Source of the DNA: Mycobacterium sp.
GTDB taxonomy: Bacteria; Actinomycetota; Actinomycetes; Mycobacteriales; Mycobacteriaceae
Assembly: GCA_046095365.1 (NCBI GenBank)
Contig: JBJTJF010000077.1
Reading direction: 5' to 3' (one strand)
DNA: 64,000 nt
In this document: positions 14,448-14,491 of the stretch, piece after piece
Numbering within the stretch: position 1 is the stretch's first letter
How the letters are laid out: every line of letters begins with the position of its first letter
Made by a program: the position numbers and the translations under genes
The notes under the pieces: model-generated
The model's input: only the letters and a program-made list of their open reading frames with translations
What the model was told of the DNA's origin: nothing
Databases searched by the model: none

Positions 14448-14491
14448 GTTCATCGGCCGTTCACGATCCGTACTCCGCCGGTTCGCGGTAC
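14448..14491 (+). promoter_or_regulatory. Putative PHO-box array (RegX3/PhoP-type 11-bp direct repeats) upstream of pit
   Basis: GTTCATCGGCC GTTCACGATCC GTACTCCGCCG GTTCGCGGTAC in exact 11-nt register. Confidence 0.6.

Follow-up and report, generated by a model that had tools for sequence, protein, structure and literature searches.

In E. coli, PhoB, a regulator of the OmpR/PhoB family, binds head-to-tail to the Pho box, which consists of tandem 7-nt cores (CTGTCAT) separated by 4-nt spacers and has an 11-bp period. The operator of the low-affinity transporter gene pitH2 of Streptomyces coelicolor is said to comprise four central repeats and two flanking ones. The PHO boxes that are recognized by Streptomyces PhoP are 11-nt direct repeats with the core GTTCACC (PMC4415409), and PHO-box control of Pit transporters is already known in Streptomyces, Corynebacterium and Microlunatus. 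In Microlunatus phosphovorus, a GTTCACnnnnnGTTCaC site was footprinted at the pit promoter and sites were also reported at pstS, ppk and ppgk (PMC6754071); the authors assigned the site to PolR, a DevR-like protein, while noting its similarity to the PhoP box. In Corynebacterium glutamicum, phosphorylated PhoR, a PhoP-type regulator with the motif CCTGTGAA-N3-CCTGTGAA, binds the pitA promoter and represses the gene, and pitA goes down under phosphate limitation (Schaaf and Bott 2007, as given in PMC3353115). The mycobacterial phosphate response has been assigned to SenX3-RegX3 (PMC12301784). As quoted in PMC7525159 (see also PMC7884335), the motif of phosphorylated RegX3 at the phoA, senX3 and pstS promoters of M. 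smegmatis is the hexamer GTGAAC/GTTCAC. The one mutationally defined RegX3 site of M. tuberculosis, at esx-5 (GGTGCcaactGGTGA; bioRxiv 10.1101/400960), has a 10-bp period and is unlike the motif described below, and for gltA1, cydB and ald no shared motif was identified by Roberts et al.

The array studied here is located in a 64,000-nucleotide stretch of mycobacterial DNA (the window), within the 236-bp gap that separates pit (minus strand) from the divergent DUF3349-menE genes (plus strand). A direct reading of positions 14448-14491 of the plus strand, GTTCATCGGCC GTTCACGATCC GTACTCCGCCG GTTCGCGGTAC, showed the four units in exact 11-nt register that the initial annotation had described. All four point away from pit. 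The unit scores (in bits; Table 1) were obtained with a matrix trained on the pit boxes of other species, with nothing from the present genome included. As marks of a PHO box we used at least two tandem G(G/T)TCAYY units with an 11-nt period, a position in the promoter region of a phosphate-metabolism gene, conservation at orthologous promoters and presence of the motif at canonical Pho-regulon genes of the genome. Units u1 and u2 provide the tandem, with u4 being weak and u3 no match, and the array is intergenic and lies upstream of pit, 94 nt from the ATG; the two remaining marks are treated below.

Table 1. Features of the pit and senX3-regX3 loci; positions refer to the window, unit and array scores are in bits.
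Feature	Position	Strand	Remarks
pit, PHO4/PitA-family phosphate transporter, 430 aa	13062-14354	-	NF033774 PitA-like
Predicted pit -10 element CACAAT	14362-14367	-	7 nt before ATG
Small ORF without family match	12761-13165	-	downstream of pit
DUF3349 paralog	12442-12852	-	downstream of pit; Pfam PF11829, E=2.8e-32
Putative pit-proximal extension unit GTTTCCC	14427-14433	+	on the side of u1 that faces pit, at 21 nt; score -1.5
12-nt inverted repeat	14435-14446 / 14451-14462		overlaps u1; arms GAACGGCCCATG / CATCGGCCGTTC, 92% complementary
u1 GTTCATC	14448	+	12.9, strong
u2 GTTCACG	14459	+	7.8, strong
u3 GTACTCC	14470	+	-7.3, non-consensus, not a match
u4 GTTCGCG	14481	+	0.9, weak alone yet conserved across species
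Predicted -10 TAAGAT of DUF3349-menE	14543-14548	+	conserved TAnnAT block; predicted leader ~36 nt
DUF3349 gene	14591-14893	+	divergent from pit; Pfam PF11829
menE	14851-16065	+	NF005877 o-succinylbenzoate-CoA ligase, 528.8 bits, above cutoff
OmpR-family response regulator (234 aa) and histidine kinase (348 aa)	16133-17849	+	directly downstream of menE
regX3	55196-55876	-	presumed cognate regulator
senX3	55873-57024	-	
senX3 array GTTCAgcggtc GTTTAccgaat GTTCTatttcg	57085-57117	+	16.3; three units, 11-nt register
gpm	57110-57862		upstream of senX3; gpm-senX3-regX3 order preserved

The window contains a single copy of the pattern GTTCA-N6-GTTCA, where 0.03 were expected, and 3 of 100 shuffles contained a match. 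A genome-wide scan for the same pattern, as proposed in the initial annotation, yielded four sites in 3.57 Mb, of which two are within genes and two are intergenic; one of the latter belongs to pit and the other to a PPK2 gene, so that both adjoin phosphate genes. Considering the low expectation per window and the location of both intergenic copies, chance can be excluded as the origin of the array. A repeat search reported no direct-repeat family at this position that would make it a generic tandem or direct repeat. The inverted repeat that overlaps u1 is not conserved across the 30 mycobacterial loci that were aligned (see below); it creates a GAAC in the opposite orientation, 10 nt ahead of u1, which is present there in a subset of the relatives only. 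On the pit side of u1, the GTTTCCC unit may represent an extension of the operator, as judged from its resemblance to the third unit (GTTTGCC/GTTTCCC) found within the senX3 arrays of relatives.

The longest possible pit reading frame starts at an ATG inside u1 (14453). It was rejected, as relatives align from the ATG at 14354 and conservation at the protein level does not extend to the part upstream of it. MGTEMIILVLL, the N-terminus that results, aligns with MS(T/A)E(M/L)II of the relatives and, given that this alignment begins at M(G/S)TEMII, the pit start was placed at 14354. An ATTCTG/ATTGTG block (CAGAAT/CACAAT in the direction of pit) is found 7-9 nt from the start and is near-invariant in 28 of the 30 loci; at the loci of the alignment that bear this block no Shine-Dalgarno sequence precedes the pit start. 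Because of this -10-like block 7 nt from the ATG and the lack of a Shine-Dalgarno sequence, the pit mRNA is probably leaderless. In a single relative, a metagenome-assembled genome (Mycobacterium sp. LacPavin_0818_WC45, locus L037), the -10-like block is separated from the pit ATG by an extra 29 nt, an insertion that brings in an AAGGA Shine-Dalgarno sequence, which looks like a natural switch of a leaderless gene to a leadered one. In the start-site mapping of M. smegmatis (supplement to PMC6448022), no transcription start was detected for pitA. An E. coli-type promoter scan found nothing, and a second, box-adjacent pit promoter was rejected, as the stretch of the window that separates the box from the putative leaderless promoter contains no TANNNT element.

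Downstream of pit, the small ORF and the DUF3349 paralog probably form one operon with the transporter gene. On the other side of the array, the predicted leader of DUF3349-menE may be compared with MSMEG_1063 of M. smegmatis, for which the same supplement (PMC6448022) gives a transcription start 36 nt upstream of the start codon. The mapped coordinates were used for leader lengths only; on G160, a genome that matches the M. smegmatis pitA primer (hereafter M. smegmatis-type; it may be another strain than mc2 155), they gave no canonical -10 fit at senX3 or DUF3349. The two-component system that follows menE has no counterpart at the position downstream of menE in M. tuberculosis. The present genome (G000) is small, with 3.57 Mb (69.8% G+C, estimated to be 98.65% complete) where most relatives in the genus have 5-7 Mb, and contains three DUF3349 genes. 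Two of these flank pit and the third (C23:12256) is located on contig C23 (C23:12194-12573), with a box-like site upstream (TTTCACCgggcGTTAACC). A functional tie between DUF3349 and phosphate transport is conceivable, but the score of the C23 site, 17.1 bits, does not exceed what chance would give.

To describe the conservation of the box, pit loci were gathered from 40 relatives and 80 named genomes, and the upstream regions of 30 mycobacterial pit genes were aligned. The core GTTCAYC-N4-GTTMAYC is found upstream of pit in nearly every Mycobacterium/Mycolicibacterium locus, pointing away from the gene. The most conserved non-coding columns of the alignment are those of GTTCA in u1 and GTT.A in u2. 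In most of the 30 loci GTTnGCC is found at the position of u4, exactly at +33, and an nTTTGCC block is kept at -21; the position of u3 is not conserved. With a minimum two-unit score of 14, a box pointing away from pit was recovered in 18 of the 23 Mycobacterium-labelled loci (none in the direction of the gene) and in 28 of the 56 loci from other Actinomycetota (two in the direction of the gene), the latter set including Williamsia, Gordonia, Rhodococcus, Nocardia, Isoptericola, Actinoplanes and Microlunatus. The coding controls gave no match in either set, and the box is thus conserved at orthologous promoters. The initial annotation had inferred that the pit operon, or the divergent DUF3349-menE, has been 'wired into' the RegX3 regulon. 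Given its presence in most of the mycobacteria examined and in roughly half of the loci from other actinobacteria, the box does not represent new wiring in the present genome; PHO-box control of the low-affinity transporter is probably widespread across the Actinomycetota and ancestral. The M. smegmatis-type genome carries the same operator, 96 nt from the pitA ATG, and strain mc2 155 very likely has it upstream of pitA as well. In its pit upstream region (L147:1549-1654) two TTTGACC blocks, which are not matrix matches, occur in exact 11-nt register at 66 and 33 nt from the core, and one of them coincides with the predicted pit -35. The phased array of the M. smegmatis-type genome may therefore extend as far as the core promoter.

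The same matrix was used to recover the motif elsewhere in the genome. The best intergenic matches were found at ppk2 (25.6), pstS (22.6) and pit (20.7), followed by those at a second PHO4 transporter (17.8), phoU (17.2), the third DUF3349 gene (17.1) and senX3 (16.3). The three matches with a score of at least 20 are all intergenic and all adjoin phosphate genes, against ~0.8 expected per simulated genome. Overall, matrix matches are enriched around 2-fold genome-wide relative to the simulations, so the regulon argument rests on the location of the top matches. These lie at ppk2, pstS, phoU, senX3 and the second PHO4 transporter, canonical Pho-regulon genes, which identifies the motif as the PHO box of this organism. 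The match at pstS belongs to a pstSCAB-phoU locus that adjoins mshD-glnR, as in M. smegmatis. A perfect GTTCACCtggcGTTCACC is located directly upstream of the gene for a two-domain, polyphosphate:AMP phosphotransferase-like polyphosphate kinase 2; this site (C222:15250-15271, GTTCACCtggcGTTCACCtgcg), the best PHO-box match of the genome, lies ~17 nt upstream of the GTG. Considering that a GAAGGAG Shine-Dalgarno sequence is found between the box and the start, it may lie at or past the transcription start. The second PHO4-family transporter (342 aa, PitB-like) is preceded by the units GTTAACC, GTTCTTG and GTTCACC (C72:6348-6391), which point in the direction of the gene, 20-60 nt upstream of the start, and are thus oriented opposite to those of pitA.

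At senX3, for which the initial annotation had noted the same motif in the same relative orientation, we indeed found a three-unit array that points away from the gene. It occupies the stretch from 61 to 93 nt ahead of the GTG of senX3, its last unit overlaps the stop codon of gpm, and senX3 upstream arrays are kept, in the same orientation, in around 25 relatives. The senX3-regX3 genes are 41 kb from the pit array. Within the genome, the boxes at pstS, ppk2, phoU and the second PHO4 transporter point in the direction of the gene and those at pit and senX3 away from it. Orientation was considered as a rule for the sign of regulation and rejected, as the mixed orientations gave no rule.

When the locus is compared with the systems described above, several likenesses and differences become apparent. 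Like the E. coli Pho box it has an 11-bp period and, presumably, a regulator of the OmpR/PhoB family; the E. coli box has a different core and replaces the -35, whereas the strong units here lie ~95-115 nt upstream. The strong central units with weaker flanking ones resemble the 'core plus extension' layout that the pitH2 operator reportedly has. The 11-nt repeats and the position upstream of a low-affinity Pit transporter are likewise shared with pitH2 (Sola-Landa et al. 2008), although in S. coelicolor the regulator is PhoP and pitH2 is activated at low phosphate, whereas here the regulator is presumably RegX3, the pitA reporter of M. smegmatis showed no induction and the operator is ~95 nt away from a start that is probably leaderless. 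The two-unit motif of M. phosphovorus is identical and is found at pit, pstS and polyphosphate genes, as it is here at pit, pstS and ppk2, but M. phosphovorus is a member of another order and its site was assigned to a different regulator (PMC6754071). C. glutamicum, a member of the same order, has its phosphate response regulator at the promoter of the low-affinity transporter as well (PMC3353115); in the Corynebacterium loci L063 and L064 the box is close to the start and in the direction of the gene, whereas the mycobacterial site is further upstream and oppositely oriented.

A point to be decided is which gene the box serves. In the 30-locus set, 23 loci have 93-97 nt from the pit ATG to u1 and five have 84-85 nt, two classes that differ by one helical turn. 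The distance between u1 and the DUF3349 start (143 nt in the present window) varies from 91 to 182 nt (sd 22) and is unphased. Moreover, slow-grower-type loci with a gene order like that of M. tuberculosis, for instance in M. arosiense, have an Rv0546c-like VOC gene as the upstream neighbour of pit in place of a divergent DUF3349-menE, and these loci retain the box at ~86 nt from pit. The phased distance to pit and the retention of the box where DUF3349-menE does not diverge from it tie the operator to pit, and the link to DUF3349-menE and menaquinone synthesis that the initial annotation had put forward as possible finds no support in these data. An array that mainly drives DUF3349-menE, or both directions, and thereby couples phosphate status to menaquinone synthesis would account for the fact that the units point toward DUF3349, as the boxes at pstS, ppk2 and phoU do toward their genes, and for the geometry in several relatives, where a gap of 34 nt separates u4 from the DUF3349 -10 (31 nt at pstS). 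The box-like site upstream of the third DUF3349 gene could be taken in the same sense, but several matches with a score of 17 are expected per genome by chance, and the units nearest to the DUF3349 promoter are the weakest. Taken with the unphased spacing, this makes such a role improbable, although a secondary effect of the box on DUF3349-menE is possible. The element could also be a functionless relic, or act in a way that does not involve a transcription factor (DNA structure, small RNA), with mycobacterial pitA being truly constitutive. In M. smegmatis, a pitA-lacZ reporter that included 750 bp of the upstream region was unchanged after 2 h of phosphate starvation and constant in all conditions tested (Gebhard et al. 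2009, PMC2797804), in line with the statement in the initial annotation that mycobacterial pitA is regarded as not phosphate-regulated, and no pitA transcription start was mapped in this organism (supplement to PMC6448022). Nevertheless, a relic would have lost the base-level conservation, the orientation and the helical-turn spacing that are kept genus-wide and beyond, the same motif occurs at other phosphate genes, and a search for structured RNA gave no Rfam family match (best hit a 13-bit raiA, E=0.47). We therefore consider this explanation very unlikely.

With respect to the regulator, the genome encodes a SenX3-RegX3 ortholog, with a RegX3 that is 87.5% identical to the probe sequence used for M. 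tuberculosis RegX3, and no close ortholog of M. tuberculosis PhoP (Rv0757) was found in it, the best match to the PhoP probe being 50% identical. Around seven OmpR-family regulators were detected in this genome by tblastn with two response-regulator probes. The pit array has GTTCAC/GTGAAC in common with the RegX3 motif of Glover et al. (2007), as quoted in PMC7525159, and matches the pstS upstream region of the M. smegmatis-type genome, where GTTCACTgtgcGTTCACC (score 24.5) is found beside oppositely oriented GTGAAC copies. RegX3 belongs to the OmpR/PhoB family and is as such a direct-repeat binder, and the motif is found upstream of both senX3 and pstS in the present and the M. smegmatis-type genome. 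In the latter, the pstS region (L149:1200-1260) reads GTGAACacgcTGAACgtGTTCACtgtgcGTTCACC, with two units per orientation placed back to back. Such an arrangement of both orientations probably accounts for the 'inverted repeat' by which Glover et al. described the motif. Given that SenX3-RegX3 is the phosphate regulator, that GTTCAC is shared, that the senX3 arrays are conserved and that a close PhoP is lacking, RegX3 is the likely binder. Of the initial proposal, the PHO-box-like nature of the array, the motif shared with senX3 and RegX3 as the most plausible regulator thus hold, whereas the locus-specific rewiring does not. The RegX3 assignment is weakened by the dissimilarity to the esx-5 site, which has a 10-bp period (GGTGC-N5-GGTGA) as compared to 11 nt at pit, and by the occurrence of the same box under PhoP-type or other regulators in other Actinomycetota. 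Both observations, together with the GTTCACC repeats of Streptomyces PhoP (PMC4415409) and the presence of an uncharacterised regulator-kinase pair 1.6 kb from the array, would fit an operator that is real but bound by another OmpR-family member, either of the PhoP/PhoR type or the response regulator beside menE (16133-16837). Yet no close PhoP ortholog was found in this genome, the phosphate response of mycobacteria is assigned to SenX3-RegX3 (PMC12301784), the motif upstream of senX3 in around 25 relatives is the expected autoregulatory site, the M. smegmatis promoters bound by phosphorylated RegX3 share GTGAAC/GTTCAC, and the box is kept where no two-component system adjoins menE, as in loci with the M. 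tuberculosis-like gene order. A regulator other than RegX3 is therefore unlikely in our view.

Considering the above, it is rather probable that the array constitutes the core of a PHO-box operator of the pit promoter, which is bound by phosphorylated RegX3 and tunes pit with phosphate status. Phosphorylated RegX3 would bind the tandem 11-nt GTTCAYC units as head-to-tail dimers, starting at the strong units u1 and u2 and spreading cooperatively to the weaker conserved units (GTTnGCC at +33 and nTTTGCC at -21). The operator would then cover about -73 to -137 from the leaderless pit transcription start, and its fixed helical face would allow pit transcription to be tuned by phosphate status, with no on/off switch. 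The operator is positioned wholly upstream of the -35, is helically phased and is oriented like the autoregulated senX3 site, on the basis of which we lean slightly towards activator-type control. Since the M. smegmatis-type promoter carries the same operator, the unchanged pitA-lacZ activity argues against strong induction; repression would be invisible in that assay, because LacZ is stable in non-growing cells. Positive regulation of pit accordingly has close to an even chance in our estimate, negative regulation is a serious possibility that we rate somewhat lower, and the lack of any measurable effect is the least likely outcome, though one with a real chance.

In the literature searched, we found no report of pitA as a RegX3 target or of PHO-box control of mycobacterial pitA. 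What is new here is the breadth of the conservation across the Actinomycetota, the fixed orientation and the helical phasing of the pit box. The data suggest that RegX3 controls mycobacterial pitA, a gene so far regarded as constitutive. Tentatively, and at slightly less than even odds, we extend this to pitA being a conserved direct target of RegX3 in the sampled fast- and slow-grower lineages, with a long multi-unit operator on one helical face ~85/95 nt upstream and a leaderless promoter. If this is true, the view of the mycobacterial Pit system as 'constitutive' would be wrong, an artefact of a reporter that is blind to repression or modest tuning, and the phosphate regulon would include the DUF3349 genes that accompany pit. 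Phosphate sensing via Pst and SenX3-RegX3 is important in mycobacterial persistence and virulence, and the recognition sequence of RegX3 is poorly defined. In this respect, the pit locus offers a deeply conserved candidate operator in which two strong units are flanked by weaker conserved ones and which is helically phased to a putatively leaderless promoter. When the sites at pstS, phoU, senX3 and ppk2 are considered as well, a direct-repeat model emerges, GTTCAYC with an 11-nt period, that would reconcile the 'inverted repeat' of Glover et al. (2007) with the direct repeats that are expected for regulators of the OmpR/PhoB family.
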